Assembly (NCBI GenBank): GCA_038065715.1
Contig: JBBTQL010000006.1
Coordinates: 2,127 to 66,126, forward strand
DNA length: 64,000 bases
Direction: 5' to 3'
Source of the DNA: Patescibacteria group bacterium
Lineage (GTDB): Bacteria > Patescibacteriota > Minisyncoccia > Minisyncoccales > Staskawiczbacteraceae
Below are positions 17,111 to 60,734 of the stretch, one piece after another. Position 1 is the stretch's first letter, and each line of letters opens with the position of its first letter. Below the pieces are notes generated by a model, which worked only from the letters and a program-made list of their open reading frames with translations, was not told the origin of the DNA and did not search any database. The position numbers and the translations under genes are program-made.

Positions 17111-18089
17111 TAGTCTGCGTAATTTTTTTATAATTATTTAGCCAATTTATTTTTTTGCTTCCCCCGCATCTAACTTGTTCTGGCGCGGGGTGTCTTCTAA
17201 ACCAAGTCATCTGGTGCTTTGCAAAATGCTCTGATTCTATTTGAATTTTATCTATCATTTGTTGATATGTAATTTTATTTTGTCCCGATTTTGTCGAGGA
17301 TCCTCGATTGTTTTGCAATCGGGATAAATATTGCGCGACGAAACGATATTCTAAACCAAATTCTTCAAGGCGTTTCCATGACAAGCCAGCTATATGAAGT
17401 TTTTTAACCTCATTTATCATTGCCTGATTACGTAATCGATTAAGCAATCTTTTACGTATTAATTTTTTTAATTCAATAGGAGATTTTGCAATTCCTATTT
17501 GCAACACAGAAAATTGCGACGTCTGCCGTTGCAATTCTGGCACTGGCTTTTTTGTAGTTAAAACAATTTCTAATGCCCTTATCAATCTGCGGGGGTTTTG
17601 CCTGTCAATTAATTCAGCCCGTTTTGGGTCTAATTTTTTTAATTTTTCAAAAAGTTCTTCGTTGCTCAATTTTTCCAATTTTTTTCGTAATTTCCAGTCG
17701 GGTTTTACTTCAGGGATAATAATTCCATCAACAACAGATTGTATATAAAAACCGGTTCCGCCAACTAAAATAGGCAGTTTGTTTCTTTTTTGAATATCTT
17801 TAATTACTTTCAGCGCTAATTTTTGATATTGAGCCACAGTAAATTTTCTTTTTGGATTTGCCACATTTAAAAGATGATGGGGGATTCCTCGCATTTCTTT
17901 TTTAGTTATCTTTCCAGAGCCGATATCCATTCCTTTATAAATTTGCCTTGAATCAGCCGAAATAATTTCTACGCCCTTAATGCCAAGTTTTTTAAATCGT
18001 TGCCCTTCGGCTATGCTCAGGGCCAATTTGATGGACAAATTGGTCTTTCCAGAAGCGGTGGGCCCCAAAATTACAATAAGTTTATTCAT
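17088..18089 (-). CDS. miaA: tRNA dimethylallyltransferase
   Basis: P-loop GPTASGKT. VGGTGFY. Confidence 0.9.
   Translation of the reverse strand: MNKLIVILGPTASGKTNLSIKLALSIAEGQRFKKLGIKGVEIISADSRQIYKGMDIGSGKITKKEMRGIPHHLLNVANPKRKFTVAQYQKLALKVIKDIQKRNKLPILVGGTGFYIQSVVDGIIIPEVKPDWKLRKKLEKLSNEELFEKLKKLDPKRAELIDRQNPRRLIRALEIVLTTKKPVPELQRQTSQFSVLQIGIAKSPIELKKLIRKRLLNRLRNQAMINEVKKLHIAGLSWKRLEEFGLEYRFVAQYLSRLQNNRGSSTKSGQNKITYQQMIDKIQIESEHFAKHQMTWFRRHPAPEQVRCGGSKKINWLNNYKKITQTIDNFILK
18001..18025. repeat. GC-rich hairpin, in frame in miaA
   Basis: tgcccttcggctatgctcagggcca, encoding part of LALSIAEGQRF. Confidence 0.5.
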
Positions 18090-19381
18090 TTAATTATTTT
18101 TGCTTTTAATGTAAAGGGCGCAACTTCGGTTATTTTTACTTTTACTAATTTTCCTAAAATATTTTTGTTTGATTTCACTTTAATCGTTTTGTATTGTTCG
18201 TTTTTGCCAAACCAGTAATCGCCGCGATTACTGTCTATTAAAACCATTGTTTCTTTTCCAATTAGTTTTTTGTTTTTTTCTAAAGCAGTTTGTTTTAAAA
18301 TTTCTGTTAAAACTTTTTCTCTGCGTTTTTTTTCAACAATTGAAACATCATCTTTTAATTTAGCGGCAGCAGTGCCAGTTCGCGGGGAATATTTGTTTAT
18401 ATAAGCCATATCAAATTTAATTTCACGGAAAAGTTTTGCAGTATTTTCAAATTGTTTTTTTGTTTCTCCAGGGAACCCAACAATTATGTCTGTGGACAAG
18501 GCAATGTTTTTAATTTTTTCTCTTAATTTTTTAATTTTATTTTTATAATCTTTTACAGTATAATGCCGATTCATTGATTTCAAAACTTTATCATCACCAG
18601 CCTGAACGGGCAAGTTTAAGTAGGGCGTCACCTTCTTACAAGTTGCCATCGTTTTTATAGCTTCGTCATTAAAGTCTTTTGGGTGGCTGGAAGTAAACCT
18701 TATCCAAAATTCGCCAGGGATATCATTTACCGTTCTTAATAATTTTGGAAAATTTATGCTGTTATCTTTATAGCTATTAACATTTTGCCCCAAAAGCCAA
18801 ATTTCCTTTGCCCCGCGAAGCCTTGGCGAAGTGGGGTTTGTAATATTTTTTATTTCTTGAATAATGTTTTTGGCTGGCCGCGAAATTTCCCTTTCGCGGG
18901 TGTAGGGGACAACGCAATAGGCGCAAAAATTATTGCAGCCTGTCATTATTGGCACATTAGCTGAAAATTTGTTTGAATATTTTGGAGTTATATCTAAATA
19001 ATCACCCTCGTCATATTTTAAGCGATAGCGTGAAATATGACGAGGGTTGGTTTTTATAATTTTTGGGATTTTTTTTATGTTTTTTATATCCAAAACGCAG
19101 TCAAAACCTTTTATAAAAATATTTTTGTCTTTTTTTAAAACACAGCCGGTTAAAATTGTTTTTAAATTTTTATTATTTTTTCTGATATTTTTAAATTTTT
19201 CAACAAGACCGTGAACGCGGTTTACCGCAGACTGCCTGACAGAGCACATTGCCACAACAACTAAATCTGCCTCTTTAAGATTAGAAGTGTTTTTATATTT
19301 TACAGAATCTAAAATCGTGGCAATTCTTTCAGAATCAGATATATTCATTTGGCATCCATATGTTATAATGTGATATTTCAT
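18086..19381 (-). CDS. miaB: tRNA-2-methylthio-N6-dimethylallyladenosine synthase
   Basis: N-terminal YGCQMN. Radical SAM GCNNFCAYCVVPYTRERE. C-terminal TRAM-like domain. Confidence 0.9.
   Translation of the reverse strand: MKYHIITYGCQMNISDSERIATILDSVKYKNTSNLKEADLVVVAMCSVRQSAVNRVHGLVEKFKNIRKNNKNLKTILTGCVLKKDKNIFIKGFDCVLDIKNIKKIPKIIKTNPRHISRYRLKYDEGDYLDITPKYSNKFSANVPIMTGCNNFCAYCVVPYTREREISRPAKNIIQEIKNITNPTSPRLRGAKEIWLLGQNVNSYKDNSINFPKLLRTVNDIPGEFWIRFTSSHPKDFNDEAIKTMATCKKVTPYLNLPVQAGDDKVLKSMNRHYTVKDYKNKIKKLREKIKNIALSTDIIVGFPGETKKQFENTAKLFREIKFDMAYINKYSPRTGTAAAKLKDDVSIVEKKRREKVLTEILKQTALEKNKKLIGKETMVLIDSNRGDYWFGKNEQYKTIKVKSNKNILGKLVKVKITEVAPFTLKAKIIK
18811..18836. repeat. GC-rich hairpin, in frame in miaB
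   Basis: ccccgcgaagccttggcgaagtgggg, encoding PTSPRLRGA. Confidence 0.55.
19005..19046 (-). repeat. Palindromic element family 3 (CCCTCGTCA...TGACGAGGG), 42 nt, in frame in miaB
   Basis: ccctcgtcatattttaagcgatagcgtgaaatatgacgaggg, with a 14-bp perfect stem. Inverted orientation relative to the copies at 30617 and 31310. Confidence 0.85.
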
Positions 19382-24616: not shown

Positions 24617-26422
24617 TCATTTTTTATTTTCTATCTCTCCTTTTACCTTATCAATAAATTTTTCCAATGGCATTTGGCCTAAGTCTCCCTCGGCCATAGC
24701 CCTTTCGGGCGCAGCCGAACGGGCGAGGCCCTCGCCGCGCTTTCTGACAGAAACCGCGTTTGCAGAAATTTCTTTGTCGCCAACAATTAAAAGATAAGGG
24801 ATTTTTTGCATTTCAGCCTCTCTTATTTTTTTGCCCAAAGTTTCGTTTTCAGATTTTAATTCAATGCGTATTTTTTTTTCTTTTAATTCTTTTTCAATTT
24901 TTTTAGCGTAATCAAAATGTTTTTCTGAAATCGGAATAACTGCAACCTGAACAGGGGACAGCCACAAAGGAAAAGCCCCTTCGTATTTTTCAATAAGAAA
25001 AGCCATTGTTCTTTCTATGGCGCCTATAGACGAGCGATGTATCACAATAGCTTCTTTATCTTTACCATCTTTATCTGTATAAACTAAACTAAATCTTTTT
25101 GGACCCACAAAATCATATTGCACGGTAAAAGCGGTTTCTTCTTTTCCGGCGAAATTTTTCATTTGGATGTCTATTTTTGGGCCATAAAAAGCAGCTTCAT
25201 TTTTTGCCTCAAAAAAAGGAGCATTTCTGTTTTTTAAAACTTTTCTTAAAATGTTTTCTGCGTAATTCCAAGCCTTGTCGTCTTTGTAATATTTTTTGCT
25301 GTCTTTACGGTCGCCTAAGGAAAGCCTGTATCTGTAATCAGTGTTTAATTCTAAATCGAAAATTTTTGCCATGTGGTCAATTAAATCTAATACATTGTTT
25401 ATTTCTTCTTCAATTTTTTCAGGCTGGCAAATTATATGAGAGTCGGCAAGGCAAAAGCTTCTTACTCTTATTAAGCCCGTTAATTCACCGGATTTTTCGT
25501 AGCGAAATTGTTTTGCCAGTTCAGCAATTTTGAAAGGCAGTTCTCTATATGAACGAGGTTTTGCCAAATAAAGTTGGTAGTGGTGGGGGCATGTCATTGG
25601 CCTTAATATAAGTTCTTCTTCGTCAACTTTCATCACGGGGTACATTGTGTCTTTGTAATATGGATAATGTCCGGATTTTTTGTATAAATCTACCTTCGCT
25701 AATTCTGGAGTATAAACATGTTTGTATCCTCTTTTTATTTCTTCATCAACCACCAATCCTTCCAATTCGCGTCTTATTGCAGAACCTTTTTCAGTAAACA
25801 ATGGCAATCCTTTTCCTACTAAATCCGAAAACACAAATAAATCCAGTTTTTTTCCTAAAACTCTGTGGTCGCGTTTTTCAGCTTCTTCCTGCATTTTTAT
25901 ATAATCTTGCAATTCTTTTTCAGTTTCAAAAGCTAAGCCGTAAATTCTTGTCAGCATTTTATTTTTTTCTGAACCCTTCCAGTAAGCCCCTGCTATTTTT
26001 GTTAATTTAAAAGCTTTTGGATTTATTTCATTCGTTGATTTTACATGCGGCCCTTTGCACAGATCCACAAATTCCCGCGAATTCCCGGTATTCGCGGGAA
26101 TGGTGTAAATTGAAACCGTTTTTCCAGGAAGTTCTTTTATTAATTCTAATTTATATGGCTGGTCTTTAAATATTTTTTTTGCTTTTATTTTTGAGATTTC
26201 TTCTTTTTTAAACTTTTGGTTTTGCAAAATCAGCTCGCGCATTTTTTCTTCAATTTTTTTTAGGTCGTCTGGCTCTAATGGTTTTGTTAATTGAAAATCA
26301 TAGTAAAATCCATTTTCAATTGCAGGTCCTATGCCTAATTTTGTTTTAGGCCAAAATTCTAAAACAGCCTCGGCCATTATATGTGATAGGGAATGACGTA
26401 TTTTTTCTATATTTTCTGACAT
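24617..26422 (-). CDS. thrS: Threonine--tRNA ligase (no N-terminal TGS domain)
   Basis: Editing-domain HSLSHIMAEA. Class II core (RPMTCPHHYQ, FRYEKSGELTGLIRVRSF). Anticodon-binding tail. Confidence 0.95.
   Translation of the reverse strand: MSENIEKIRHSLSHIMAEAVLEFWPKTKLGIGPAIENGFYYDFQLTKPLEPDDLKKIEEKMRELILQNQKFKKEEISKIKAKKIFKDQPYKLELIKELPGKTVSIYTIPANTGNSREFVDLCKGPHVKSTNEINPKAFKLTKIAGAYWKGSEKNKMLTRIYGLAFETEKELQDYIKMQEEAEKRDHRVLGKKLDLFVFSDLVGKGLPLFTEKGSAIRRELEGLVVDEEIKRGYKHVYTPELAKVDLYKKSGHYPYYKDTMYPVMKVDEEELILRPMTCPHHYQLYLAKPRSYRELPFKIAELAKQFRYEKSGELTGLIRVRSFCLADSHIICQPEKIEEEINNVLDLIDHMAKIFDLELNTDYRYRLSLGDRKDSKKYYKDDKAWNYAENILRKVLKNRNAPFFEAKNEAAFYGPKIDIQMKNFAGKEETAFTVQYDFVGPKRFSLVYTDKDGKDKEAIVIHRSSIGAIERTMAFLIEKYEGAFPLWLSPVQVAVIPISEKHFDYAKKIEKELKEKKIRIELKSENETLGKKIREAEMQKIPYLLIVGDKEISANAVSVRKRGEGLARSAAPERAMAEGDLGQMPLEKFIDKVKGEIENKK
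24685..24740. repeat. GC-rich double hairpin, in frame in thrS
   Basis: TTCGG..CCGAA and GGCGAG..CTCGCC stems, encoding GEGLARSAAPERAMAEG. Confidence 0.7.
26071..26101. repeat. GC-rich hairpin with a perfect 12-bp stem, in frame in thrS
   Basis: attcccgcgaat tcccggt attcgcgggaat, encoding IPANTGNSRE. Confidence 0.8.
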
Positions 26423-26984: not shown

Positions 26985-29900
26985 TTATGCAGAATAGAGG
27001 TCGCCTTTTGGGACAATAATTTCTTGGGCGTCGTCGGCAACAATTTTTATTTCTCCATTTCTGTCGTCAACTCTTCCTGCCACAAAAATAATTTTATTTT
27101 CCTGCAAGGCCGCTGGATTTCTTTCTAAAAGATTTGGAAAAATTATAATTTCTGTTTTTCCGGTTAAATCTTCAAGTTTCATAAACAACATTGGCTTGCC
27201 GTTTTTAGTGATAATTTTTTTGACAGAAGAAACTAACCCGCCGACAATAATTTTTTTGTTTACAAAACTTGCGTCAATTCTTGAGATTGGCGTTGTTTTA
27301 TTTTCAAAAAGTTTTTTAAAGCTGTATAAGGGGTGCGAACTTACATAAAGGCCAAGCAATTCTTTTTCCCAGCCCAGCTTTTCAAAGTTGCTTGCTGGAG
27401 TTGCGGGTTCTAATTTTATTTCACTTGTAATTTTTACGCCAGCCGATGCAAAAAGCCCAATTTGGTTTGAATTATTGTTTTTGTTGTTTTCTCTTGCAAT
27501 TTCAAGCATTTTTTCAAGGTTTTGCAAAAGCCTGTTTCTTTCTGCAAACTCGTCAAAAGCTCCAGCTTTTATTAAAGCCTCCATTGATTTTTTATTTAAG
27601 TCTTTTGATTTTACCCTATGTATGAAATCGCTGATAGACGAAAATTTTCCATTTGCTTTTCTTTCTTCAACAACTGCATCTATAATATTTACGCCAACAT
27701 TTTTTATTGCTAATAAGCCAAAGCGAATTTGTCCGCCAGCTGGCGGATTTTTCGGCACAACGGTAAAGTTTTTCAAACTTTCATTTATATTTGGCGGTAA
27801 AACCTCAACATTCATTTTTTTGCATTCGTCAATTAAAAAGGCAATTCTTTCAACGTCGGCTTTTTCTGAAGTTAAAACCGATGCCATAAATTCAACAGGG
27901 TAGTGGGATTTTAAGTAAGCTGTTTGATAGGCAATTGTGGCGTAAGCAGCAGAATGAGATTTGTTAAATCCGTAAGCTGCAAAAGGTAAAATCCATTGCC
28001 ACAATTCTTCGCCAATTTTTTTTGAAACCCCATTTTTTACAGCTCCATCAATAAATTTTACTTCTTGAGCATCTAAAAGATTTTTAATTTTTTTGCCGAC
28101 TGCTTTTCTTAAAACATCGGCTTCGCCCAAAGTAAATCCGCAAATTTCTTGGGCAATTTTCATAAGCTGTTCTTGGTAAATGCAAATGCCCTGCGTTTCT
28201 TTTAATATAGGCTCTAATTTTGGATGTAAATATTCTATTTTTTGGCCACCATGTTTTCTTGAAATATAATCTGGAATAAATTGCATAGGTCCCGGGCGAT
28301 ATAAGGCAACCATTGCGGTAATATCTTCAAAAGTTGTTGGATGCAATTCTTTTAAATATCTTTTCATTCCGTCAGATTCTAATTGAAAAACAGAAGTTGT
28401 TATTGCGTCCTGTAAAAGTTTAAAAGTTTTTTGGTCGTCATAAGGAATATTATCTAAATCAATTTTTAAATTATTATGCAAAACATAAATGCGCGCCAGA
28501 GTGTCTTCTATTATAGTAAGGTTTTTTAACCCTAAAAAATCCATTTTTAAAAGGCCCAAGTCTTCAATGCTGTGCATTTCATATTGGGTTATAATGCCTT
28601 CTTCTGATTGGGTTGACCTCTGCAAAGGAACAGATTCAGTTAAAGGGTCTGCTGAAATCACAATTCCGCAAGCGTGAGTTGAGGCGTGGCGGGCAACTCC
28701 TTCAAGTTTTTTTCCTAAATCAATTAAGCGCTTTGCCTGGTCGTCCATTTTATACATATCCTTAAACTCCGAAACTTTTTCTAATGTTTCTGCCAAATCC
28801 ATGCCGGTTGGAATCATTTTTGCGAGCGAGTCGCAATATGAATAAGTGTACTGCAAAGCCCTGCCAACGTCGCGAATAACAGCGCGGGCCGCCATTGTTC
28901 CAAAAGTAATAATTTGGGCAACACGGTCTTGTCCATATTTTTCTGCAACATATTTTATAACTTCGTCTCTTCTTCTGTCGGCAAAATCTAAATCAATATC
29001 AGGCATAGAAATTCTTTCAGGATTTAAAAATCTTTCAAAAAGCAAATTATGTTTTAAGGGGTCAACGTTAGTGATATTTGTTAAATAGGCAACTAATGAA
29101 CCGCCGGCAGAACCTCTGCCAGGCCCCACAATTATTCTGTTTTGCTTTGCCCAGTTCACAAAATCCTGCACAATTAAAAAATATCCGGCAAAACCGGTTT
29201 TTTCTATAACTGAAATTTCATAATTCATCCTATCTTTTATTTTTTGCAGATGCTCGGTATCTGTGATATTGCCGAATCGTGTTTTCAATCCTTGATGGCA
29301 CAATTCTTCTAAAAATTGTTCTGTTGTTTTTCCTTCTGGTAAAGGGAAAACAGGCAATTTTGTTTTTCCCAGTTCAATTCGCAAATTACATTGTTCAGCT
29401 ATTTTTTGCGTGTTTTCTATAGCTTCTGGAACATCTTTAAAATATTCTGCCATTTCTTCCGGGCTGAGCATTGAAAAATTATCTTGAGCCATAGATAATC
29501 TTTCTGGGTCGTTTGCGTCGGCTCCAGTGTTTATTAACATTAAAACATCTTGGGCTTCTGCGTCTTCTTTTTTTAAATAATGTATGTCGTTTGTGGCAAC
29601 AAGAGGTATGCCTGTTTTTTTAGAAAGCTCTATTAGTTTTTTGTTTACAGTTGCTTGCTCTGGTATGTTGGCATGGCGCTGTAATTCTAAATAAAAATTT
29701 CCTTTGCCAAAAAAAGATTCATATCTTTTTGCGGTTTCTTCTGCTTCATCATCCTTTTTAGATAAAAGAAGCCGAGGAATTTTTCCCTGTATGCAGGCCG
29801 ACAAGCCAATTAATCCTTCTGCGTGAGCGCTTAAAAGTTCTTCGTCTATTCTGGGTTTATAATAAAAACCTTCTAGGTGCGCTTTTGACACAAGTTTCAC

Positions 29901-30203
29901 TAAATTTTTATATCCCTGCTCATTTTTTGCAAGCAGAATTAAGTGATGCCTTCTGTTGTCTATATTTGGCCTTTTGTCTTGCATTTTATCTATAGCAACA
30001 TAAACTTCGCATCCGATAATCGGTTTTATTCCTTTTGTTTTTGCTTTTTTAAAAAATTCAATGGCGCCATACATTACTCCGTGGTCGGTTAAGGCAACAG
30101 AGTCCATTCCAAGCTCTTTTACATAATCTAAAAGTTCGTCAATTTTTGGCAGACCGTCAAGAAGGGAATAGTGGCTATGAACGTGAAGATGAGTAAACTT
30201 CAT
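26985..30203 (-). CDS. dnaE: DNA polymerase III subunit alpha
   Basis: PHP domain FTHLHVHSHYSLLDG. Polymerase core. C-terminal OB fold. Confidence 0.95.
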   Translation of the reverse strand: MKFTHLHVHSHYSLLDGLPKIDELLDYVKELGMDSVALTDHGVMYGAIEFFKKAKTKGIKPIIGCEVYVAIDKMQDKRPNIDNRRHHLILLAKNEQGYKNLVKLVSKAHLEGFYYKPRIDEELLSAHAEGLIGLSACIQGKIPRLLLSKKDDEAEETAKRYESFFGKGNFYLELQRHANIPEQATVNKKLIELSKKTGIPLVATNDIHYLKKEDAEAQDVLMLINTGADANDPERLSMAQDNFSMLSPEEMAEYFKDVPEAIENTQKIAEQCNLRIELGKTKLPVFPLPEGKTTEQFLEELCHQGLKTRFGNITDTEHLQKIKDRMNYEISVIEKTGFAGYFLIVQDFVNWAKQNRIIVGPGRGSAGGSLVAYLTNITNVDPLKHNLLFERFLNPERISMPDIDLDFADRRRDEVIKYVAEKYGQDRVAQIITFGTMAARAVIRDVGRALQYTYSYCDSLAKMIPTGMDLAETLEKVSEFKDMYKMDDQAKRLIDLGKKLEGVARHASTHACGIVISADPLTESVPLQRSTQSEEGIITQYEMHSIEDLGLLKMDFLGLKNLTIIEDTLARIYVLHNNLKIDLDNIPYDDQKTFKLLQDAITTSVFQLESDGMKRYLKELHPTTFEDITAMVALYRPGPMQFIPDYISRKHGGQKIEYLHPKLEPILKETQGICIYQEQLMKIAQEICGFTLGEADVLRKAVGKKIKNLLDAQEVKFIDGAVKNGVSKKIGEELWQWILPFAAYGFNKSHSAAYATIAYQTAYLKSHYPVEFMASVLTSEKADVERIAFLIDECKKMNVEVLPPNINESLKNFTVVPKNPPAGGQIRFGLLAIKNVGVNIIDAVVEERKANGKFSSISDFIHRVKSKDLNKKSMEALIKAGAFDEFAERNRLLQNLEKMLEIARENNKNNNSNQIGLFASAGVKITSEIKLEPATPASNFEKLGWEKELLGLYVSSHPLYSFKKLFENKTTPISRIDASFVNKKIIVGGLVSSVKKIITKNGKPMLFMKLEDLTGKTEIIIFPNLLERNPAALQENKIIFVAGRVDDRNGEIKIVADDAQEIIVPKGDLYSA
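27732..27747. repeat. 16-nt perfect GC-rich palindrome, in frame in dnaE
   Basis: tccgccagctggcgga, encoding part of NPPAGGQ. Confidence 0.6.
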
Positions 30204-30280
30204 AGAATTACTAAATTGCTAATAGCTACGAATATACTAATACGTATTCGTAAATTAGTAATTATTCGTAATTTAGTAGT
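30204..30280. promoter_or_regulatory. Cluster of about 4 operator-like AT-rich motifs directly upstream of dnaE
   Basis: attcgtaaattagta and attcgtaatttagta are direct copies. tactaaatt...tacgaat is a split inverted copy. gctaatagc is a mini-palindrome. Confidence 0.4.
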
Positions 30281-30315
30281 TCTATTTTACTTTTTATGTT
30301 CTGCGCGGTCAACTA

Positions 30316-30344
30316 TTGACAACAATAAAAAATAGGTGTATAGT
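30316..30344 (+). promoter_or_regulatory. Sigma70-type promoter TTGACA-N17-TATAGT
   Basis: ttgaca acaataaaaaataggtg tatagt. Confidence 0.5.
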
Positions 30345-30405
30345 TAAATATATGGGTGGCTTGTTGCTATCTCATATAAAAAGCCTAATTCTGAAAGGAA
30401 AATAC

Positions 30406-30519
30406 ATGGACGAAACAGGCGATAGGTTTAGGGCTATTCTTTTTGGAGCGGTAATTGTCGCGACATTGTTTGCCTTAGCTATGTTGATAGCGGTGGCTGG
30501 CGGTATCGGCGGCAATTGA
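30406..30519 (+). CDS. Hypothetical 37-aa single-TM peptide
   Basis: AAAGGAAA precedes the ATG at 30406. Sequence MDETGDRFRAILFGAVIVATLFALAMLIAVAGGIGGN. Flanked by its own promoter and terminator. Confidence 0.4.
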   Translation: MDETGDRFRAILFGAVIVATLFALAMLIAVAGGIGGN

Positions 30520-30556
30520 CGTTTTGGTCTGCGGCATCAGATGCTTTGCAGACTCG

Positions 30557-30585
30557 GCTGTAGTGTTTTACACTACAGCTTTTTA
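30557..30585 (+). terminator. Intrinsic terminator
   Basis: GCTGTAGTG / CACTACAGC stem followed by TTTTT. Confidence 0.7.
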
Positions 30586-30616
30586 TATTATAAATTCGTC
30601 TTTTTCTACTTTTTTA

Positions 30617-30658
30617 CCCTCGTCATATTTCACGCTATCGCGTGATTTCTGACGAGGG
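30617..30658 (+). repeat. Palindromic element family 3, intergenic copy
   Basis: ccctcgtcatatttcacgctatcgcgtgatttctgacgaggg. The 41 nt at 30618-30658 are identical to 31310-31350. Confidence 0.9.
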
Positions 30659-30679
30659 TTTTATTTTGTGATATAATAA

Positions 30680-30709
30680 AACAATTATAAACAATTATAA
30701 ACAATTATA
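30680..30709 (+). repeat. Three perfect tandem copies of AACAATTATA, followed by a partial inverted copy (TAATTGTT)
   Basis: aacaattata x3, about 45 nt upstream of the PaaX-like gene. Confidence 0.85.
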
Positions 30710-30751
30710 GGTAATTGTTAGTTAGGCAAATTAAAATAACAAATAAGCAAC

Positions 30752-31288
30752 ATGAATAAAACTAAAGAAAAAATATTACTACTTTTATTGGGCGGACTAG
30801 CCTTTGGTTGCAGTTATACATTTGGCAAACAACGTATGGTTTTGAAAACCGTTTCACGGGAATGGAAAAAATTAAACCCAAAAGAACTAAGAGAGGGAAT
30901 AAGTTATTTATATAGATTAGAATTTATTGATAAAAAGGAATATGAAAATGGATTAACCACATTGTCGCTTACAAAAAAGGGAAAGTTAAAAGCGCTGAAT
31001 TTTCAATTAGAAAATATAAAAAATAAAAAAGAGAAATGGGACGGAAAATGGAGAATGGTGGCATTTGATATTCCAGAGAAATATAAAAAAGGCAGAGATG
31101 CTCTGCGTCAAAAACTAAAAAAGATTGGTTTCTGCGAATTACAGAAAAGCGTTTTGATAACGCCTTTCAATTGCAGAGAGGAGATAGGGCTTTTAGTAGA
31201 TTTTTTTAATTTGGAAAAATATGTGCGCTTTGCTGTTTTGGAATTTATTGATAATGAATATTATTTAAAAAAAGTTTTTAAATTATAA
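30752..31288 (+). CDS. PaaX-like (winged-helix plus Cas2/VapD-like fold) putative transcriptional regulator
   Basis: WDGKWRMVAFDIPEKYKKGRDALRQKLKKIGFCELQKSVLITP matches the PaaX-family central motif as I recall it. Confidence 0.65.
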   Translation: MNKTKEKILLLLLGGLAFGCSYTFGKQRMVLKTVSREWKKLNPKELREGISYLYRLEFIDKKEYENGLTTLSLTKKGKLKALNFQLENIKNKKEKWDGKWRMVAFDIPEKYKKGRDALRQKLKKIGFCELQKSVLITPFNCREEIGLLVDFFNLEKYVRFAVLEFIDNEYYLKKVFKL

Positions 31289-31309
31289 TAAATATTATGT
31301 TAATTTAGA

Positions 31310-31350
31310 CCTCGTCATATTTCACGCTATCGCGTGATTTCTGACGAGGG
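31310..31350 (+). repeat. Palindromic element family 3, intergenic copy
   Basis: cctcgtcatatttcacgctatcgcgtgatttctgacgaggg, identical to 30618-30658. Confidence 0.9.
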
Positions 31351-31413
31351 TATGTTGCATATGTTGTTTTATCGTTTTATCGTTTTATTGTTGTCTTATT
31401 ATTATTTTATTTT

Positions 31414-32142
31414 ATGAAATACCCGAATTTTAATGAAGAAAAAAAGTTATGGAAAAAAGGATATAAATATATAGCTGGTTTAGATGAAGCAGGCAGAGGG
31501 CCTTTGGCGGGGCCAGTTGTTGCTGCGGCTGTTGTTATATTAAATCCCAATGACCAAATTCCAATGACCAACAAAATTATAAATATCAAAGCTCAAAAAA
31601 ATTTTGGACATTGGACATTGGGGTTTGGGATTTCTGAAATTAAAGATTCAAAACAACTTTCATATAAAAAACGAGAGCAACTTTATGATATTATTACAAC
31701 AAATCAAAATATTAAATGGGGAGTTGGCATTGTTTCAGAAAAAGTTATTGATAAAATAAATATTCTTGAGGCAACAAAATTGGCTATGAAAAAATCGATT
31801 AAAAATTTAAATCCTGATTTTTTGTTGATAGACGGAAATTTTAAAATAAATATAGATGAAGCCGCCTCCGCCCCGCCATGGCGGCGCTTCGGCGAGCCGA
31901 AGCAAAAGTCTATCATAAAAGGAGATTCAAAAGTTTTTTCAATATCTGCCGCATCAATTATTGCCAAAGTTACAAGAGATAGAATAATGAAAAAAGAGCA
32001 TAAAAAATATCCGCAATATGGATTTGATGGGCACAAAGGATATGGCACAGCTTTTCATTTTAAAATGATTAAAAAACACGGCTCGTGCAAAATTCACAGA
32101 AAAAGTTTTTGGCCCGTCAGCAGTTACAATAATGCAAAATAA
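31414..32142 (+). CDS. rnhB: Ribonuclease HII
   Basis: [33 protein letters not shown]. Carries two apparent in-frame insertions. Confidence 0.9.
31542..31633. repeat. AT-rich composite palindrome, in frame in rnhB
   Basis: aaatcccaatgaccaaattccaatgaccaa ... ttggacattggacattggggtttgggattt, encoding about 25-30 extra residues between the AAV and DSKQLS motifs. Confidence 0.6.
31858..31902 (+). repeat. GC-rich element family 2, in frame in rnhB
   Basis: gaagccgcctccgccccgccatggcggcgcttcggcgagccgaag, encoding [15 protein letters not shown]. Confidence 0.8.
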
Positions 32143-32179
32143 AAAGCCCTGATCGTCCATAATCAGGGCATGTTTTTTG

Positions 32180-34183
32180 CTACTCTGTCGTAGCTACTTC
32201 TACTGCGTTTTTAACGGATGGCCAGTACCTCCATTCGTAGGTCATTGACCGCCAGTTAGTTTTCCATGAGCTTGCAGTAAACTTTGGTTTTTTTATGCCA
32301 TCAATGCTTCCGTACTTTTCTATAGTCTTTTTTTTCCAGTTTGCCTCCATTCTCCTTATTTCCTTTTCATCTTGACCAGGCTTATTTAATGGAGACATGT
32401 CCATATCTATTTCCACTGGCTTTATAGCGGCGTAAGTATTGCCAATCCTTAGTACGATTATCTTTTTTACGGGAACTAAAACCTGTGGCAGACTTTTACC
32501 CTTGCTATCACTAAAGCCTGTTTGATTCAGTCCCTTGAACTCGTACTTGGAAGGGTCGGTAATCTTGCTGATATCAGTTTCGTCTATAAGGGCGAATAAC
32601 AAAAGCCCTTGTCCGCTGTTTTTTGCTTCTTCTGTTTCCAAAAAAATAGTGATAGCGCCATTCGGACTCGAAGGAATGGGGCCAATTGATCCTCGCCAGC
32701 CGGTTTTAATAGATCCAACAGTGAACGCAGAAAAACTAGGCCAGATGTTTTGGTTTGCCGGTAATTTATTTTTACCGGATACTGACTGGAGAAGGCTATC
32801 TGGAGTTTTACCGCTTGAAACCATTGGCATATTTGCTTTTAAGCCCAATGGATTACAGTAAAAGAATGCTTCTGGAACAAAATCCAAGAGCATGCTCAAC
32901 TCTCCACCGCCGTCCCACAGCCTTAAAATGCCTTTCTCATCTCTAAATATAAAGGCATTGTTGCTTATCCAGTGGTATTTGCTGCCTTTTATTTCAGTGA
33001 TGATTGTTTTTGGCTGGATTGGGAAAACATTATTCACCGGCAAGTTGCGGAAAGAATATTTTGGATGTTTTACCAAACCGCTGTTTTTGATGCCGTTTTT
33101 TATTTGTTCTCCATCCAGTAAAAATACAGTTCCTTCTGAAAAAAAAGCAAGCCCGCCGTCTGGTTCTGGTTTCCATGCCAAGCCTTCGCAGTTGCGAAGT
33201 TGCACCGGTATTTCATAAATCCCAGGGTGTAAGTTTTTAGATACTTTGCCTGTTGCGCTATTTCTTATCATAGCTTGGCTTTGTCCTCTAATTTCAATAG
33301 GACCCCATCCAAAAGGAGTTTGGTATATTACAGCAAACAGTTCTTCATCAGGATTTTCGGCCGTTAACCAGACTGCGAAATGTCCGTCTCTCCTAAATGA
33401 AAACCTTTTAATGCACTCGTTTCCCATAAGGCTTGCGTTAGCCTCTATGTCATGCTCGGGTCCACTAAAAACAAGAGGATTTTTGAATTTATATGCATCT
33501 TCTCCAAAATATGACGGGTTTGTTCTAAAAGGCCAGACTGGCGCGCAGAAATTAGTGTTTCCGCAGTATTGCCAAGCAGGCAATGGCGACGGCATGTTGC
33601 CATTAATATCTTTTTTGAAAAAGACAACAGCGTTGCACACATCTTTTTTTGCTATATACAGCGGCCAATATTGGGCAACATGCGGCTTATACTTGGCAAA
33701 CCACATTTTGTCTATTTCGCTCCCCGGCTTTATGGGAACCATAGAGTCGCCTGTTTTTTCAAGCTCAAAAGATATATTGTTTCCGTTTCTTGAAACAACA
33801 ATATTTTTGGCAGACTGCGGCACAATCACGTCTGTAATTCCGTTTGCAACCTCTCTATCTTTTCCAATAGGTTTGAAAACAGTTCTCTTAAGAGTATATG
33901 ATTTTCCGTTAGGCAGAAGCTTTATCCAAAGCTTGCGGTCCTTTATCCAAAATAGAGTTGTTCCATCCTCTGAAACAGTGAAAGGATCGTTGCCGATTGT
34001 TTCCTCAACGCCGCCTGTAAGGTTTATCCGCTGTTTTGTTGTGAAATCGCAGTAAACAAGGTCTTTGCCGTCAGAGAAAACAATGCCTCCCGGGATTTCT
34101 TTGGCTTTTGCAGAAACGCAAAGAGCCAAAAAGATCAAAACTATCAAAACGATCAACCAGAACAATGCGATTGCCTTTTTCAT
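32180..34183 (-). CDS. Hypothetical secreted protein (GC-richer), possibly beta-propeller-like
   Basis: Signal/TM MKKAIALFWLIVLIVLIFLALCVSAKA from the ATG at 34183, preceded by GGGAG. The ORF track extends to 34282. Own promoter upstream. Confidence 0.65.
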   Translation of the reverse strand: MKKAIALFWLIVLIVLIFLALCVSAKAKEIPGGIVFSDGKDLVYCDFTTKQRINLTGGVEETIGNDPFTVSEDGTTLFWIKDRKLWIKLLPNGKSYTLKRTVFKPIGKDREVANGITDVIVPQSAKNIVVSRNGNNISFELEKTGDSMVPIKPGSEIDKMWFAKYKPHVAQYWPLYIAKKDVCNAVVFFKKDINGNMPSPLPAWQYCGNTNFCAPVWPFRTNPSYFGEDAYKFKNPLVFSGPEHDIEANASLMGNECIKRFSFRRDGHFAVWLTAENPDEELFAVIYQTPFGWGPIEIRGQSQAMIRNSATGKVSKNLHPGIYEIPVQLRNCEGLAWKPEPDGGLAFFSEGTVFLLDGEQIKNGIKNSGLVKHPKYSFRNLPVNNVFPIQPKTIITEIKGSKYHWISNNAFIFRDEKGILRLWDGGGELSMLLDFVPEAFFYCNPLGLKANMPMVSSGKTPDSLLQSVSGKNKLPANQNIWPSFSAFTVGSIKTGWRGSIGPIPSSPNGAITIFLETEEAKNSGQGLLLFALIDETDISKITDPSKYEFKGLNQTGFSDSKGKSLPQVLVPVKKIIVLRIGNTYAAIKPVEIDMDMSPLNKPGQDEKEIRRMEANWKKKTIEKYGSIDGIKKPKFTASSWKTNWRSMTYEWRYWPSVKNAVEVATTE

Positions 34184-41761: not shown

Positions 41762-42235
41762 ATGCTTACAATTCGTTTATCAAGAAAAGGCAAAAAGAAT
41801 CAGCCATTTTTTAGGGTGGTTGTTATAGATAAAAGAAGATCGACAAAAGGAGGAAGGTCGGTTGAAGATTTGGGTTACGTTAATCCTTTAACTAAAAAAA
41901 TATCTTTAAATAAAGAAAGAATTCAGTATTGGCTAAAAACCGGCGCCCAGCCATCGGACACAATTCACAATTTGCTTGTAAAAGAAAAAGTTATAGACGC
42001 AAAAAAAATTCACGTTTCAAAATTAAGCAAAAAAAAGCAAGCAGAAATACTCGCCCGCAATAATGTAGCAGCTTTAGGCGGGGATAAAGAAAATGCAGCT
42101 AAAGTTCAGGCAGCCGCCTCGTCCGCTGACGAGGCGAGCCTCGCCCCCGAAGGGGCGGGAAGCAATCCAGAAGAAGTCGCGAAAGAAGAGTCAAAACCAA
42201 CAGAGGAAGTCGCAGGGGAAGAAGTTAAAGCATAA
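41762..42235 (+). CDS. rpsP: 30S ribosomal protein S16 with a C-terminal extension
   Basis: MLTIRLSRKGKKNQPFFRVVV. Confidence 0.9.
   Translation: MLTIRLSRKGKKNQPFFRVVVIDKRRSTKGGRSVEDLGYVNPLTKKISLNKERIQYWLKTGAQPSDTIHNLLVKEKVIDAKKIHVSKLSKKKQAEILARNNVAALGGDKENAAKVQAAASSADEASLAPEGAGSNPEEVAKEESKPTEEVAGEEVKA
42113..42160. repeat. GC-rich double hairpin in the rpsP C-terminal extension
   Basis: CCTCGTC cgct GACGAGG and CGCCCC cgaa GGGGCG, encoding AASSADEASLAPEGAG. Confidence 0.7.
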
Positions 42236-46779: not shown

Positions 46780-47682
46780 ATGTTAGTTGGGCATAGCAAA
46801 CAATGGGAGTTTTTAAAGAAAAAGCTTGAACAAAATCAGCTTTCACATGCTTATTTGTTTTCTGGCCAAAATGGAATAGGCAAAAAAACTTTTGTAATAG
46901 AATTTGTAAAATATATAAATTGCCTTGCCTCGCAGAAGCCCCGCCTTGGCGGGGCGGAGGCGGGTCAAATAAATGCAAAAATACCTTGCCAAAAGTGCGC
47001 AAATTGCCTAATGATAGAAAAAAACAGTTTTCCGGATTTAACGGTTTTATCGCCAAATGGAAAAGATGAGAAATTCGGAGATGGAGGCGAAATAAAAATT
47101 TCCAGAATCAGGGAGGCGCAAAATTTTTTAAGCTATAAATCGTATTACGGCTCTTTTAAATCTGTTATCATTGACTGCGCAGAAAGCATGAATCAAGAGG
47201 CGCAAAGCTGTTTATTAAAAACTTTAGAAGAGCCAAAAGGGAAAACACTGATTTTTTTAATTTCTTCAAGGCCAGAAATAATTCTGCCGACAATTTTTTC
47301 AAGATGCCAGCAAATAAAGTTTTTTTGGGGCAAAAATTTGCCAGAAAATTTAGAAAAAAAAGAAATAGAGAAAGAAATTTTAAACAGCTTGATTCCTGTT
47401 TTAAATTCTAATCTTTCAGAAAAGTTTAAATTTGTAAAATCCATTGATGCAGAAAAGCAAAAAATTGAAGACATTATAAAGGTTGCGCAGAAATATTTAA
47501 GGCATTTATTGCTTGCAAAAATAGGCATAGAGAAATTTGATGTTAAAGACGGAGTTTTTGCAAAGTATTCAATTGGCGATTTAAAAAGAGTATTAAATTT
47601 GGCAGAAGCAATAAACAGAGAATTAACGTTTACCAATGCCAGCCCTAAATTGGCATTGGAAATATTATTAATGGAAACATAA
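46780..47682 (+). CDS. holB: DNA polymerase III subunit delta'
   Basis: HAYLFSGQNGIGKKT. Zinc module C..(insert)..CQKCANC. SRCQ. Confidence 0.8.
   Translation: MLVGHSKQWEFLKKKLEQNQLSHAYLFSGQNGIGKKTFVIEFVKYINCLASQKPRLGGAEAGQINAKIPCQKCANCLMIEKNSFPDLTVLSPNGKDEKFGDGGEIKISRIREAQNFLSYKSYYGSFKSVIIDCAESMNQEAQSCLLKTLEEPKGKTLIFLISSRPEIILPTIFSRCQQIKFFWGKNLPENLEKKEIEKEILNSLIPVLNSNLSEKFKFVKSIDAEKQKIEDIIKVAQKYLRHLLLAKIGIEKFDVKDGVFAKYSIGDLKRVLNLAEAINRELTFTNASPKLALEILLMET
46926..46964. repeat. GC-rich hairpin, in frame in holB
   Basis: gccccgcc ttg gcggggc plus flanks, encoding SQKPRLGGAEAGQ inside the zinc-module loop. Confidence 0.7.
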
Positions 47683-49432: not shown

Positions 49433-50704
49433 ATGTTGCAATCAAAATTGTTTTATAAAACAGATAAACCTGCCCGCAGCGGCTTCGCCGCAGGCGATGC
49501 AGGCGGGGAAAAGTCAGCAATTTCCCACGATTTGCTGGCGCGGGCTGGGTTTGTTGACCAGCTAATGGCTGGAGTTTATAGTTTTTTGCCCTTGGGGTTT
49601 TTGGTTCTGCAGAAAATTGAAAATATAATCAGAAAAAATATGTTGGAGGCCGATGGACAGGAAATTTTAATGCCGGCATTAAATCCAAAAGAAAATTGGC
49701 AAAAAACAGGCAGATGGGATAATTTAGATATACTTTTTAAATTAAAAGGCAATGGCGATAAAGATTATGCTTTGGCTCCAACGCACGAAGAAGTTGTGGT
49801 GCCTTTAGCTAAAAAAATTATTTTTTCGCATAAAGATTTGCCGTTGTCTATTTTTCAATTTCAGACCAAATTTAGAAATGAGTTAAGGGCGAAATCTGGA
49901 ATTTTAAGGACAAGAGAATTTTTAATGAAAGATTTATATTCTTTTCATTCTACGGAAAGGGACTTAGATAAGTATTACGACAAAATGATAAAGATATATA
50001 TGAATATTTTTAAAGAATGCGGCATTGGTAAAAATACTTACCAAACATTGGCCTCTGGCGGAAGTTTTTCTAAGTACTCAGACGAATTTCAAACAACAAC
50101 AGAAGCAGGAGAAGACATAATTTATATCTGCAAAAAATGTAAGTTGGCAATTAATAAAGAAATTAAGCCAGAAAATTCGGTTTGTCCAAAATGCGGCGCA
50201 GGCGAGTTTGACGAAAAAAAAGCTGTTGAAGCAGGAAATATTTTTAAGCTGGGGACAAAATATTCTTTGCCATTTGATTTAAAATTTAGGGATAAAGACG
50301 GCCATGAAAAAGATGTTATTATGGGGTGTTTTGGAATTGGGTTAGGAAGATTATTGGGGACAATTGTTGAGATAAATCATGATGACAAAGGAATTATTTG
50401 GCCAAAATCAGTTGCCCCGTTTTTAGTCCATTTAATAGAAATTAAATCTGATAAAAAAAATATAAAGGCCACAGCAAATAAAATTTATCAAGAATTGAAA
50501 AAAAATGGTATTCAGGTATTATACGATGATAGGCAAGATAAATCAGCTGGAGAAAAATTTGCAGAAGCCGATTTAATGGGTATTCCTTTTAGGGTTGTGG
50601 TTTCAGAGAAAACATTAGCGAAAAATTCTGTTGAAGTAAAAGAAAGAAATAAAAATACAGCGAGATTAATAAAAATAAAACAATTATCAAAAATTTTAAA
50701 GTAA
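49433..50704 (+). CDS. proS: Proline--tRNA ligase, short form lacking the INS editing domain (small CxxC...CxxC insert instead)
   Basis: Class II motifs (FRNELRAKSGILRTREF, GCFGIGLGRL). CKKCKLA...CPKCG. C-terminal anticodon-binding domain. Confidence 0.9.
   Translation: MLQSKLFYKTDKPARSGFAAGDAGGEKSAISHDLLARAGFVDQLMAGVYSFLPLGFLVLQKIENIIRKNMLEADGQEILMPALNPKENWQKTGRWDNLDILFKLKGNGDKDYALAPTHEEVVVPLAKKIIFSHKDLPLSIFQFQTKFRNELRAKSGILRTREFLMKDLYSFHSTERDLDKYYDKMIKIYMNIFKECGIGKNTYQTLASGGSFSKYSDEFQTTTEAGEDIIYICKKCKLAINKEIKPENSVCPKCGAGEFDEKKAVEAGNIFKLGTKYSLPFDLKFRDKDGHEKDVIMGCFGIGLGRLLGTIVEINHDDKGIIWPKSVAPFLVHLIEIKSDKKNIKATANKIYQELKKNGIQVLYDDRQDKSAGEKFAEADLMGIPFRVVVSEKTLAKNSVEVKERNKNTARLIKIKQLSKILK
49469..49508. 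repeat. GC-rich nested hairpin, in frame in proS
   Basis: cctgcccgcagcggcttcgccgcaggcgatgcaggcgggg, encoding PARSGFAAGDAGG before the conserved SH..L..AG motif. Confidence 0.7.
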
Positions 50705-54591: not shown

Positions 54592-54626
54592 GCGGGATTA
54601 GTATAGTGGCAGTACATAACCTTCCC
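54592..54626 (+). pseudogene. Orphan 5' half of a tRNA-Gly(CCC)-like gene, broken in the anticodon loop
   Basis: GCGGGAT TA GTAT AGTGGCA GTAC A TAACC TTCCC gives acceptor strand, D-arm, 5' anticodon stem and loop up to CCC. No matching GGTTA, T-arm or ATCCCGC occurs downstream. Confidence 0.45.
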
Positions 54627-54675
54627 CCGCCCCGAAAGGGCGAGGCTCGCCCCGCCGCGGCGGGGCGGCAAGGCA
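54624..54675. repeat. GC-rich hairpin cluster abutting the tRNA half
   Basis: ccccgcccc gaaa gggcgagg, plus the 20-nt perfect palindrome cgccccgccgcggcggggcg (54648-54667). Confidence 0.8.
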
Positions 54676-54702
54676 AGATTTGGATTTCATTTTTTAAAAA
54701 AA

Positions 54703-60488: not shown

Positions 60489-60682
60489 ATTTTTTTACCT
60501 AAATAAATTCGCAAAGTTTAGCCACTGCTGGCGAGACTACAAATTTAAAAAAGCAATTTTAAATTATTTAATTATATAACTTGCTCTAAAATTGTACAAC
60601 TTATGCACTTGCCTGTGGCGTAGAAACACAAAGCCCGCCGCTAGACCGAGACTTGCACCTCCCATACCCTTTCGGATATAGA

Positions 60683-60734
60683 CCACGAACATGGAGTCTG
60701 AACGACGGGTTCAGTATGTTCGTGGAATTTTTTT
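60683..60734. other. Long hairpin (10-bp outer and 6-bp inner stems) with a T-run on the + strand, inside the cargo-gene leader
   Basis: ccacgaacat ... ctgaac gacgg gttcag ... atgttcgtgg aattttttt. Confidence 0.5.

Follow-up and report, generated by a model that had tools for sequence, protein, structure and literature searches.

The palindromic repeats that bracket a PaaX-like gene in the genome of an uncultivated groundwater bacterium (Staskawiczbacteria, CPR) are probably the cognate operators of an autoregulated, truncated PaaX-type repressor encoded between them, rather than terminators. Bracketing holds as a rule throughout the protein family, and each gene has its own private palindrome. 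A matching palindrome, defined by a flanking repeat score of at least 18, was present both upstream and downstream of 40 of the 44 homologous genes (45 loci), as compared to 1 of 426 control genes (p = 1e-27). At 50% identity the family falls into about 4,900 clusters, which makes it a large one, and genomes carry several paralogues each; a very divergent second family member (L035) was likewise bracketed.

The bracketed gene and its protein

The window, i.e., the whole 64-kb stretch of DNA analysed, holds three copies of the palindrome in total, two of which flank the gene:

30617 to 30658 (42 bp), + strand: upstream palindrome copy, proposed operator over the -35 region (exact repeat, hairpin, position in 40/44 homologous loci)
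30667 to 30677, + strand: extended -10 element TGTGATATAAT of the PaaX-like gene, its -10 hexamer 34 nt from the palindrome centre
30679 to 30708, + strand: three tandem copies of AAACAATTAT, predicted 5' leader (read from sequence)
30752 to 31288, + strand: gene of a winged-helix and Cas2-like protein, PaaX-like, 178 aa (Pfam PF20803 PaaX_M, 2e-22)
31310 to 31350, + strand: downstream palindrome copy, proposed second operator or roadblock (exact repeat)

The 41-nt sequence CCTCGTCATATTTCACGCTATCGCGTGATTTCTGACGAGGG occurs exactly twice in the window, at 30618–30658 and 31310–31350, both on the forward strand and in direct orientation. The preliminary description had reported identical 41-nt palindromes with the PaaX-like gene and the decamer array between them, and each of these elements was found again. 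No exact repeat of 41 nt is expected by chance (100 shuffles), and because the region 30560–31420 is 100% identical in three further independent assemblies from the same population the repeats are not an assembly artefact. The pattern CCCTCGTCA..TGACGAGGG also matches at 19005–19046. On folding, all three copies give hairpins of -25 to -31 kcal/mol (z -5.8 to -9.8), with -28.2 kcal/mol for the upstream copy, which is a palindrome of 44 bp when a flanking A/T pair is counted (30616–30659). The downstream copy lies 21 nt past the stop codon of the PaaX-like gene and 63 nt before rnhB.

The PF20803 (PaaX_M) domain of the encoded protein scored 79 bits against a cut-off of 24 (E = 2e-22) and was present in all 15 aligned homologues. 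The match to TIGR02277 (PaaX), 33 bits against a cut-off of 264.55, is far below equivalog level. In an AF2 model of the 178-aa protein (pLDDT 80.6) residues 3–73 are predicted to form three helices and a beta-hairpin, i.e., an N-terminal winged helix. The best Foldseek matches were E. coli PaaX (8a39), covering both domains, and Rv0674, followed by Cas2/VapD and wHTH proteins (F-93, TubR, ZitR). No Pfam HTH domain scored above threshold and PaaX_C gave no Pfam match; the protein stops at residue 178, right behind the Cas2-like domain. The predicted fold, with E. coli PaaX as the closest solved structure, would support a repressor.

The likeness of the second domain to Cas2 and VapD, i.e., a ferredoxin-like fold, an Asp-containing first strand and a Q-SVF strand, is weak but repeated among HMM and fold matches (cas2 HMM 6e-4; 4e-5 to 6e-4 across Cas2 HMM matches). 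It differs from these proteins in being fused to a winged helix and in its surroundings, as the Cas1 family was absent among called genes within 6–10 kb in four related loci (L004, L007, L136, L137), no CRISPR-like array was among the repeat families listed for the window, and the "repeats" here bracket the gene itself. F105-D106 and Q131-x-S133 are invariant in the homologues (Cas2-type motifs FDIPE and QKSVF), which suggests that dimerisation may not be the only role of the second domain and counts against a pure regulator. Profile searches matched only PaaX_M and Cas2 and gave no HUH/Tyr, DDE or integrase signature. A PDB sequence search returned marginal Cas2 and wHTH matches only, a PADLOC search for known defence systems weak Cas2 matches only, and no homologue was found on viral contigs.

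Promoter geometry, co-variation and the proposed repressor

A -35-like CTGACG lies at 30649–30654 in the right arm of the upstream copy, 17 nt before TATAAT. This geometry recurs, as the palindrome centre is found 29–36 nt from the extended -10 in 17 of 20 homologous loci with a strong -10, and the upstream copy therefore covers the -35 region. In 7 of the 20 loci the -10 ends 6 nt before the ATG, so that the mRNA is leaderless and the upstream copy is outside it. The downstream copies have no fixed phase relative to any -10, and are also found in homologues where the next gene is convergent.

The two copies at a locus resemble each other (identity about 0.88) far more than copies from different loci or paralogues do (about 0.48), and paralogues in one genome have 39–50% of palindrome positions in common. 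The arm positions span all four base-pair types and are nevertheless 82–100% complementary, compared to 25–49% with shuffled arms. The outer arms, at ±13 to ±20 of a dyad of 40–44 bp, are the most variable part of the palindrome across loci, and an invariant C:G at ±3 and A-tracts are also present.

It is likely that these observations reflect a repressor consisting of an N-terminal winged helix and a Cas2-like dimerisation domain, without a ligand domain. We infer DNA binding, repression and the role of the downstream copy along the following lines. A dimer, or a dimer of dimers, would read the variable outer arms (CTCGTCA and TGACGAG in the window) about 13–20 bp either side of the dyad centre, while a core ..ACG-C/TA-CGT.. 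with flanking A-tracts would be common to the family. With the -35 region of its extended -10 promoter lying under the upstream site, the gene would be shut off by binding of its own product (autorepression). The second site follows closely after the stop codon and would probably make repression stronger: protein bound there could bridge to the first site, or could stop transcription from running on into the gene that follows, which is rnhB in the window. Helical phasing between the two sites, a sign of looping, was not significant (Rayleigh p = 0.11–0.24, n = 24). The gene with both sites would make up a self-contained unit that is gained, lost and moved among related genomes, and paralogues would have diverged jointly with their sites, so that cross-talk is avoided. 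Extra solo copies of the site would have been copied to other places; within coding DNA they would persist only in the single frame without stops and where the protein has a permissive loop, the MiaB linker being one example.

PaaX of E. coli and Pseudomonas (PDB 8a39, 3l09) is a repressor that responds to phenylacetyl-CoA. It binds TGATTC-N27-GAATCA, a span of 39 bp, and at its own promoter it acts as a repressor by taking the place of RNA polymerase (PMC9493321). The family described here resembles it in the order of domains, a winged helix followed by a Cas2-like central domain (PaaX_M), which is also the best structural match. It further resembles it, in geometry and position only, in that the putative operator has inverted half-sites spanning about 39–40 bp with one copy over its own promoter; by analogy, this arm spacing supports the reading of the palindromes as putative operators. 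There are also clear differences. The protein has 178 aa instead of about 310 and is without the C-terminal phenylacetyl-CoA-binding domain, the Cas2-like FDIPE and QKSVF motifs are kept, and no paa genes were found nearby, the neighbours in the window and in related loci being dnaE, rnhB, thrS and miaB. Furthermore, the site is palindromic over its whole length, which the E. coli PaaX operator is not, a second copy lies behind the gene, and one genome carries several paralogues that each have a private site. For such a second site there is precedent elsewhere. Auxiliary operators inside or behind genes, hundreds of bp downstream of the promoter-proximal one, are known from lac (O2) and gal (OI). 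The putative second operator is at a similar distance downstream; it differs in following closely behind the end of the gene that encodes the regulator and in being kept nearly identical to the first.

Two features of the palindromes fit an operator less well. First, the dyad symmetry covers the full 36–52 bp, spacer included, which is unneeded for two distant half-sites and counts against operators; it may point to a hairpin or cruciform, or to perfect palindromes arising through some form of copying. Second, identity between the two copies of a locus often includes the asymmetric positions and in some cases continues for 5–25 nt past the palindrome, a pattern that resembles gene conversion or copying more than independent selection.

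Solo copies, movement of the unit and other readings

The third copy in the window lies on the other strand, inside miaB:

18086 to 19381, - strand: miaB, host gene of the solo copy (Pfam UPF0004, Radical_SAM, TRAM)
19005 to 19046, - strand: solo palindrome, in frame in MiaB where a linker joins the N-terminal domain to the radical-SAM domain (37/42 matches to the flanking copies)

This copy encodes NPRHISRYRLKYDEG (aa 112–126), so the in-frame copy that had been described within miaB is real. Its reported opposite orientation is favoured only marginally, with 37/42 matches to the flanking copies when inverted and 35/42 when direct. It also spans 42 nt in frame, as the proposed 14 codons demand, but the MiaB linker is just 8 aa longer than in orthologues without the insert, and a second insert (aa 182–191) accounts for part of the 14-aa difference in total length. 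In all, 7998 MiaB homologues were found; alignment of orthologues showed that most are without the segment, in agreement with the earlier view that this palindrome family is tolerated as coding sequence. Read from the sequence, stops occur in two of the three frames of the palindrome in either orientation, leaving only one open.

Solo copies cognate to the neighbouring PaaX-like gene were found in frame in miaB (the window), rnhB (L010) and the gene of a 1507-aa protein (L024), and between genes in L029, L034 and L053. The same miaB and rnhB loops hold different palindromes of like architecture in different genomes. Such palindromes are few, with 0–1 extra cognate copies per locus of roughly 17 kb and about seven of this architecture in 854 kb of miaB-chosen loci, five of them within miaB or rnhB. 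The miaB inserts of other genomes were also considered for comparison with the palindromes around the PaaX-like gene of the same genome; in L136 the miaB insert has decayed and the palindrome is lost, and L054 and L077 are short contigs without a PaaX-like gene. The unit of gene and both palindromes is itself variable. It is absent without a scar in L055 and L057 (L055 is without the dnaE-linked gene) and located elsewhere in L136 and L137, and its dnaE-linked position is stable across many species. Reading the palindromes as operators leaves the insertion of whole palindromes into coding regions unaccounted for.

These insertions would fit a selfish system akin to REP/RAYT, in which the palindromes are small non-autonomous mobile repeats that the wHTH-Cas2-like protein recognises, cuts and propagates. 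The bracketing palindromes would then be the two ends of an element that has become domesticated, and autoregulation would follow from one end overlapping the promoter, as in many insertion sequences. Cognate solos at new places, the repeated use of the same miaB and rnhB loops, scarless absence and relocation of the unit, near-perfect identity within loci combined with whole-length symmetry, and the invariant Cas2-type Asp motif all agree with this. We nevertheless regard it as rather unlikely, as the copy number is very low (even in the window just the three), the protein is without a recognised transposase or integrase signature, the dnaE-linked position is stable, near-identical gene copies within one genome were not found, and viral contigs carry no homologue. 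REPtrons consist of a single-copy, vertically inherited RAYT gene flanked by cognate palindromes of 20–40 bp, and different families of REP palindromes occur in one genome, with some copies inside genes (PMC3733652). The present units share palindromes of about this size, the single-copy, vertically inherited gene between its cognate palindromes, the several palindrome families and the copies inside genes. They differ in that the protein is not a HUH/Tyr (IS200/IS605-like) transposase, the flanking copies are direct where REPtron copies are inverted, a conserved unpaired GTAG or CGTC head is missing (the CGTC of the window copy is within the stem and is missing from most loci), and a handful of copies was found in the loci scanned as opposed to tens to hundreds of dispersed extragenic ones. 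An even less probable version is that wHTH-Cas2-like proteins and their private palindromes form a new REPtron-like selfish or semi-domesticated system of CPR bacteria, where a wHTH-targeted Cas2-family nuclease keeps the copies identical and seeds new ones, also in coding DNA.

It is doubtful that the palindromes act at the level of RNA, i.e., as hairpins at the 3' end of the gene's mRNA, between cistrons before rnhB and inside the miaB mRNA, bound or cleaved by the Cas2/VapD-like domain for post-transcriptional control. The hairpins are stable, compensatory change keeps complementarity along the whole stem, the downstream copy and the solos in reading frames are transcribed, and some relatives among Cas2 and VapD are RNases (PDB descriptions). 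In L019 and L017 rnhB starts 5–10 nt behind the downstream copy, which is therefore inside the operon transcript. The upstream copy, however, precedes the -10 and is outside the mRNA in leaderless homologues, yet is conserved as well as the downstream copy, and the invariant C:G at ±3, the A-tracts and the PaaX-like arm spacing point to recognition of duplex DNA.

The preliminary description had favoured a mobile or recombining cassette. What stands is that gene and palindromes behave as one unit, present in some relatives and missing or relocated in others (L055, L057, L136, L137). Recombination at the direct repeats, site-specific or homologous, with the gene excised or inserted as a circle in the manner of integron attC sites, is very improbable. 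A single gene is indeed bracketed by direct repeats, and L034 has two genes in succession marked off by three palindromes. After excision between the repeats a single one should remain, and the gene-less relatives L055 and L057, where this had been expected, kept none, which argues against it; in addition no integrase or recombinase was found among the called neighbours of related loci, single units and not arrays are the rule, and the repeat is phased to the promoter.

The suggestion of terminator-like insulators, or of common generic terminators unlinked to the presence of the gene and alike by chance, is contradicted by the data and the least probable reading: although the hairpins are strong and TTTTATTTT directly follows the upstream copy, there are just three copies in 64 kb, most copies across homologous loci (including the downstream copy in the window) are without the T-tract that directly follows the G+C-rich stem of intrinsic terminators, a terminator scan of 29800–32400 listed neither flanking copy, canonical terminators in these genomes do not resemble the palindromes and there is one at 30556–30580, 37 nt before the upstream copy, which itself lies over the -35 region of the gene's own promoter and is untranscribed in many homologues, and the sequence is private to each gene, common to its two copies and specifically associated with the PaaX-like gene family.

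Consequences and minor features of the locus

To our knowledge, CPR bacteria have very few recognisable regulators and none has been characterised. If the palindromes are operators, the probable binding site of each family member can be read from the flanks of its own gene, and regulons and rules of protein–DNA specificity therefore become testable in organisms that cannot be cultured. The paired, co-diverging sites also constitute a natural data set on the joint change of a DNA-binding protein and its site after duplication. Were the REPtron-like reading true, Cas2 relatives would gain a repeat-handling role outside CRISPR and there would be a candidate mechanism for many in-frame palindromic inserts in CPR proteins; catalytic involvement of the Cas2-like domain would bear on the origin of the CRISPR repeat-handling machinery.

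The solo copies indicate that MiaB and RNase HII of reduced genomes repeatedly accept in-frame palindromic DNA at the same loops. In-frame palindromic inserts in housekeeping proteins are known from Rickettsia. Ogata and co-workers reportedly described in 2000 how Rickettsia palindromic elements enter permissive sites of housekeeping genes without breaking the frame, so that the protein gains a stretch of peptide; these elements are about 100–150 bp long, numerous in each genome and without an associated protein gene. The palindromes described here resemble the Rickettsia elements (mentioned in PMC10969869) in being in-frame repeats at permissive sites of housekeeping genes, and differ in being shorter, few in number and associated with a protein gene. 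A literature search found no description of in-frame palindromic inserts in CPR.

An Rfam scan gave a LOOT RNA and two tRNAs only in the window, and no matches in L004, L055 and L057. A hammerhead-like reading of CTGACGAG was rejected by eye because the stretch is paired in the stem; Rfam had nothing there. A DnaA-box-like motif is about four-fold enriched in the flanks, a figure without an intergenic control. The array of AAACAATTAT is followed by a partial inverted copy, TAATTGTT, at 30712–30719. As the array is not conserved in the orthologues L004, L007 and L010, it is probably a local expansion.

The palindrome pair and its gene

The 41-nt sequence CCTCGTCATATTTCACGCTATCGCGTGATTTCTGACGAGGG has two exact matches in the window, where chance would give none, and they surround a PaaX-like open reading frame, so that the identical flanking repeats of the preliminary description are borne out. 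A third copy, of the pattern CCCTCGTCA..TGACGAGGG, lies in frame within miaB, as had also been described:

30618-30658, upstream copy, which with its first C is a 42-nt palindrome
30752-31288, plus strand, PaaX-like gene, bracketed by two palindrome copies
31310-31350, downstream copy
19005-19046, third copy, within miaB (18086-19381, minus strand), encoding NPRHISRYRLKYDEG

All three copies are predicted to form long hairpins, much more stable (-25 to -31 kcal/mol) than those of shuffled sequences, and the whole region is identical in three more independent assemblies from the same groundwater population (Hainich well H43). The opposite orientation earlier ascribed to the miaB copy is barely defined, as identity to the flanking copies is 37/42 inverted and 35/42 direct.

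Scanning a single genome of each species yielded 45 loci (handles such as L010 denote loci from related genomes) with homologues 44-78% identical. Nearly all have a near-perfect palindrome of 36-52 nt located 0-140 nt 5' of the start codon and a near-identical one 1-90 nt 3' of the stop, some distances being affected by the mechanical assignment of start codons. When each gene's upstream and downstream flanks, of 160 nt each, were compared by local alignment, a score of at least 18 was reached by 40 of 44 homologues vs. 1 of 426 other genes in the same loci (Mann-Whitney p = 1e-27). A much more divergent PaaX_M gene (L035, 1304-1831) is likewise bracketed by a palindrome of its own. Over the central 40 nt mean identity is 88% between the two copies of a locus and 48% between loci, palindrome similarity falls with protein similarity, and paralogues in one genome have only the family-wide palindrome positions in common.

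The 178-aa product matches PaaX_M ("PaaX central Cas2-like domain", 2e-22) and nothing else in Pfam above threshold; Cas2 matches are weak. The best solved structural match is E. coli PaaX (8a39), followed by Rv0674, with further matches to winged-helix proteins for the N-terminal half and to Cas2 and VapD for the C-terminal half. The stretches FDIPE and QKSVF, invariant in homologues, look like strands 1 and 3 of Cas2. Close homologues (877 at 60-89% identity) are nearly all 178-180 aa long and many are labelled Candidatus Staskawiczbacteria; clustering at 50% leaves about 4,900 representatives, and there are several PaaX-like paralogues per genome. The protein is proposed to work similarly to PaaX-type repressors, but it fails full PaaX membership, lacking a ligand domain and neighbouring paa genes and scoring far below the equivalog cut-off.

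Palindromes within coding DNA

Up to 10 kb from the PaaX-like gene, further copies cognate to the bracket palindrome of the same locus were seen:

L010, 8319, in frame in rnhB, encoding VSRHNLRYRVNYDD
L024, 12956, in frame in the gene of a 1507-aa lamin-tail-domain protein
L029, 7947, intergenic
L034, 3958, intergenic
L053, 18585, intergenic

Alignment of miaB with its orthologues agrees with an insertion: the TGC..PI block is mostly 60 aa, i.e., without the segment, and MiaB proteins with a block of 67-73 aa hold a palindrome that is alike in architecture and location but different in sequence (e.g., L054, L055, L077, L082). The insert of L054 is a perfect 44-mer with the arms of the window, that of L136 is decayed. 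The segment had been counted as 14 codons; the MiaB linker of the window is only 8 aa longer than in insert-free orthologues. RNase HII has a matching hot spot, occupied by a cognate palindrome in L010 and, in L021 and L025, by palindromes that are non-cognate with respect to the neighbouring gene; a palindrome also lies inside rnhB of L075, and the hot-spot insert of L019 looks palindrome-derived. The window palindrome has one stop-free frame of three in either orientation, which accounts for the likeness of the encoded peptides. The family is low-copy: 854 kb of loci chosen by miaB hold only about 7 palindromes of this architecture, 5 of them in miaB or rnhB, copy numbers being estimates from about 1.6 Mb of loci. 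The in-frame solo copies are like Rickettsia palindromic elements, from which they differ by their smaller size and their cognate gene.

A second class of insert was seen in the window, i.e., G+C-rich (>62%, genome 36%), partly palindromic islands in frame in many ORFs (24683-24767, 31852-31915, 42103-42184, 46918-46980, 49465-49522, 54614-54692 and others, with 18809-18838 within miaB). Hosts include ThrRS-like, RNase HII and MiaB proteins, and the encoded segments are Ala/Pro/Arg/Gly-rich (e.g., NPTSPRLRGA). Several islands have GATGAAGCCGCCTCCGCC in common (16079, 31851, 4718, 51924), and similar inserts occur in the same loops of orthologues in other genomes.

The proposed operator and competing accounts

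When 60 palindromes were aligned by dyad centre, position 3 was invariant C:G, position 1 mostly A:T, and positions 9-13 an A/T tract. At positions 4-8 and 12-20 all four base-pair types were seen, with complementarity of 82-100% vs. 25-49% when arms were exchanged among sequences. The site thus consists of a common core (..ACG C/TA..CGT..), flanking A-tracts and private outer arms. The private arms (CTCGTCA / TGACGAG at ±13 to ±19 in the window) are spaced as in the E. coli PaaX operator, which a phenylacetate-pathway review (PMC9493321) gives as TGATTC-N27-GAATCA, spanning 39 bp; according to the review, PaaX excludes RNA polymerase to repress its own promoter. The right arm of the window's upstream copy contains a -35-like CTGACG, separated by 17 nt from a TG-extended TATAAT (30667-30677). 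Of 20 loci with a strong extended -10 (TGnTATAAT), 17 have it at a distance of 29-36 nt from the palindrome centre; in 7 of the 20, exactly 6 nt separate the end of the -10 from the ATG, pointing to a leaderless mRNA. The extended -10 of rnhB in L057 (about 330-360, minus strand reading) also ends 6 nt before its ATG; this case and the 7 PaaX-like ones suggest that these Parcubacteria commonly make leaderless mRNAs.

The simplest account, which we hold with moderate confidence because it fits the protein fold, the precedent of PaaX, the phase to the promoter and the co-variation of the private arms, is that the palindrome would serve as operator of the bracketed gene's protein, that the protein bound there would repress its own gene, and that the second copy would be an auxiliary operator or roadblock.

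It is unlikely, but conceivable, that the protein itself handles and spreads the palindromes in the manner of REP/RAYT systems. Such a putative activity would cover what an operator leaves unexplained, i.e., dyad symmetry through the entire spacer, two copies near-identical even at asymmetric positions and sometimes past the palindrome, whole palindromes inserted into coding DNA, and the retained Cas2-type motifs. On the other hand, the arrangement is like REPtrons or insertion-sequence ends in form only: there is no HUH transposase, the flanking copies are direct rather than inverted, and copies are few. Full-text literature searches brought up no account of the bracket, or of palindromes inserted in frame into genes of CPR bacteria.

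That transcribed copies act as RNA hairpins is improbable. The -10 phase places the upstream copy at roughly -24 to -66, outside the transcript, which rules out a purely RNA-level role for this copy. Downstream copies have no fixed phase to any -10 across loci; they are kept where the next gene is convergent (L009, L030, L049, L051), and in L019 and L017 rnhB starts 5-10 nt after the downstream copy, within the operon transcript.

The recombining cassette suggested earlier is a weak alternative, since loss of the unit leaves no single-repeat scar. Many Parcubacteria have rnhB and dnaE as divergent neighbours; the gap measures 67-95 nt in distant relatives and 820-1400 nt wherever the PaaX-like unit is present. 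In L055 and L057, whose MiaB is 69-72% identical to that of the window, the gap of 469-605 nt holds other features and neither a PaaX-like gene nor any palindrome, where a single repeat had been expected. In L136 the spacing is 48 nt, and dnaE has a PaaX_M gene on the side away from rnhB. In L137 a homologue of 72% identity has a ribosomal-protein operon and a tRNA as its neighbours and is accompanied by an extended -10 and a perfect 40-nt palindrome. It follows that the unit, including both palindromes, has been gained, lost and moved. Among the closest homologues, a neighbour-joining tree, a quick distance tree whose short internal branches are not robust, does not separate the dnaE-linked genes from the others; it also has recent paralogue pairs within genomes. 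The terminator reading is also weak, as most copies lack a T-tract and the upstream gene in the window already has a canonical terminator of its own (30556-30580).

Other features of the window and related loci

Short tandem repeats (8-14-nt units, 2-6 copies) of varying position and mutually unrelated sequence adjoin many palindromes (flanks of L007, L009, L012, L026, L027, L028, L032, L034, L036); the decamer array of the window (30679-30708) is one of these and is not conserved in orthologues. A DnaA-box-like motif (AGTTTTCCACAG, TTATCCACA) flanks PaaX-like genes in L024, L029, L034, L039, L045, L048, L053 and others, 57-237 nt downstream or about 120-140 nt upstream; its 14 copies in the 300-nt flanks correspond to 0.52/kb vs. 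0.13/kb elsewhere in the loci, a comparison that is not confined to intergenic DNA. Long A+T-rich imperfect palindromes of TACGAATA / TATTCGTA-like words, which may be the site of another regulator, recur across several genomes:

window, 30202-30285, within the dnaE promoter region
L010, 8843-8927
L027, 13172-13249
L026, 10269-10323
L085, 6757-6790
L077, 7759-7794

Between dnaE and the next gene, three related genomes have at a conserved position a G+C-rich, structured-looking stretch of about 200 nt (L055 1240-1430, L057 600-850, L004 5660-5850) with its own promoter-like box and canonical terminator. It has no Rfam match at the gathering threshold and may be an undescribed small RNA; in its place the window has a 67-aa hydrophobic ORF (30316-30519) and a terminator. 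Two perfect inverted repeats of the window (56926-57122 / 60831-61027, 197 nt; 55056-55190 / 56794-56928, 135 nt) adjoin two tRNA genes (54987-55057, 61039-61111) and a LOOT RNA (60648-60770, minus strand, 73.6 bits), and the segment may be invertible or duplicated. Six diverged tandem coding repeats of roughly 320 nt each and 60-85% identity (58165-59918, minus strand reading) probably encode a repetitive surface protein.
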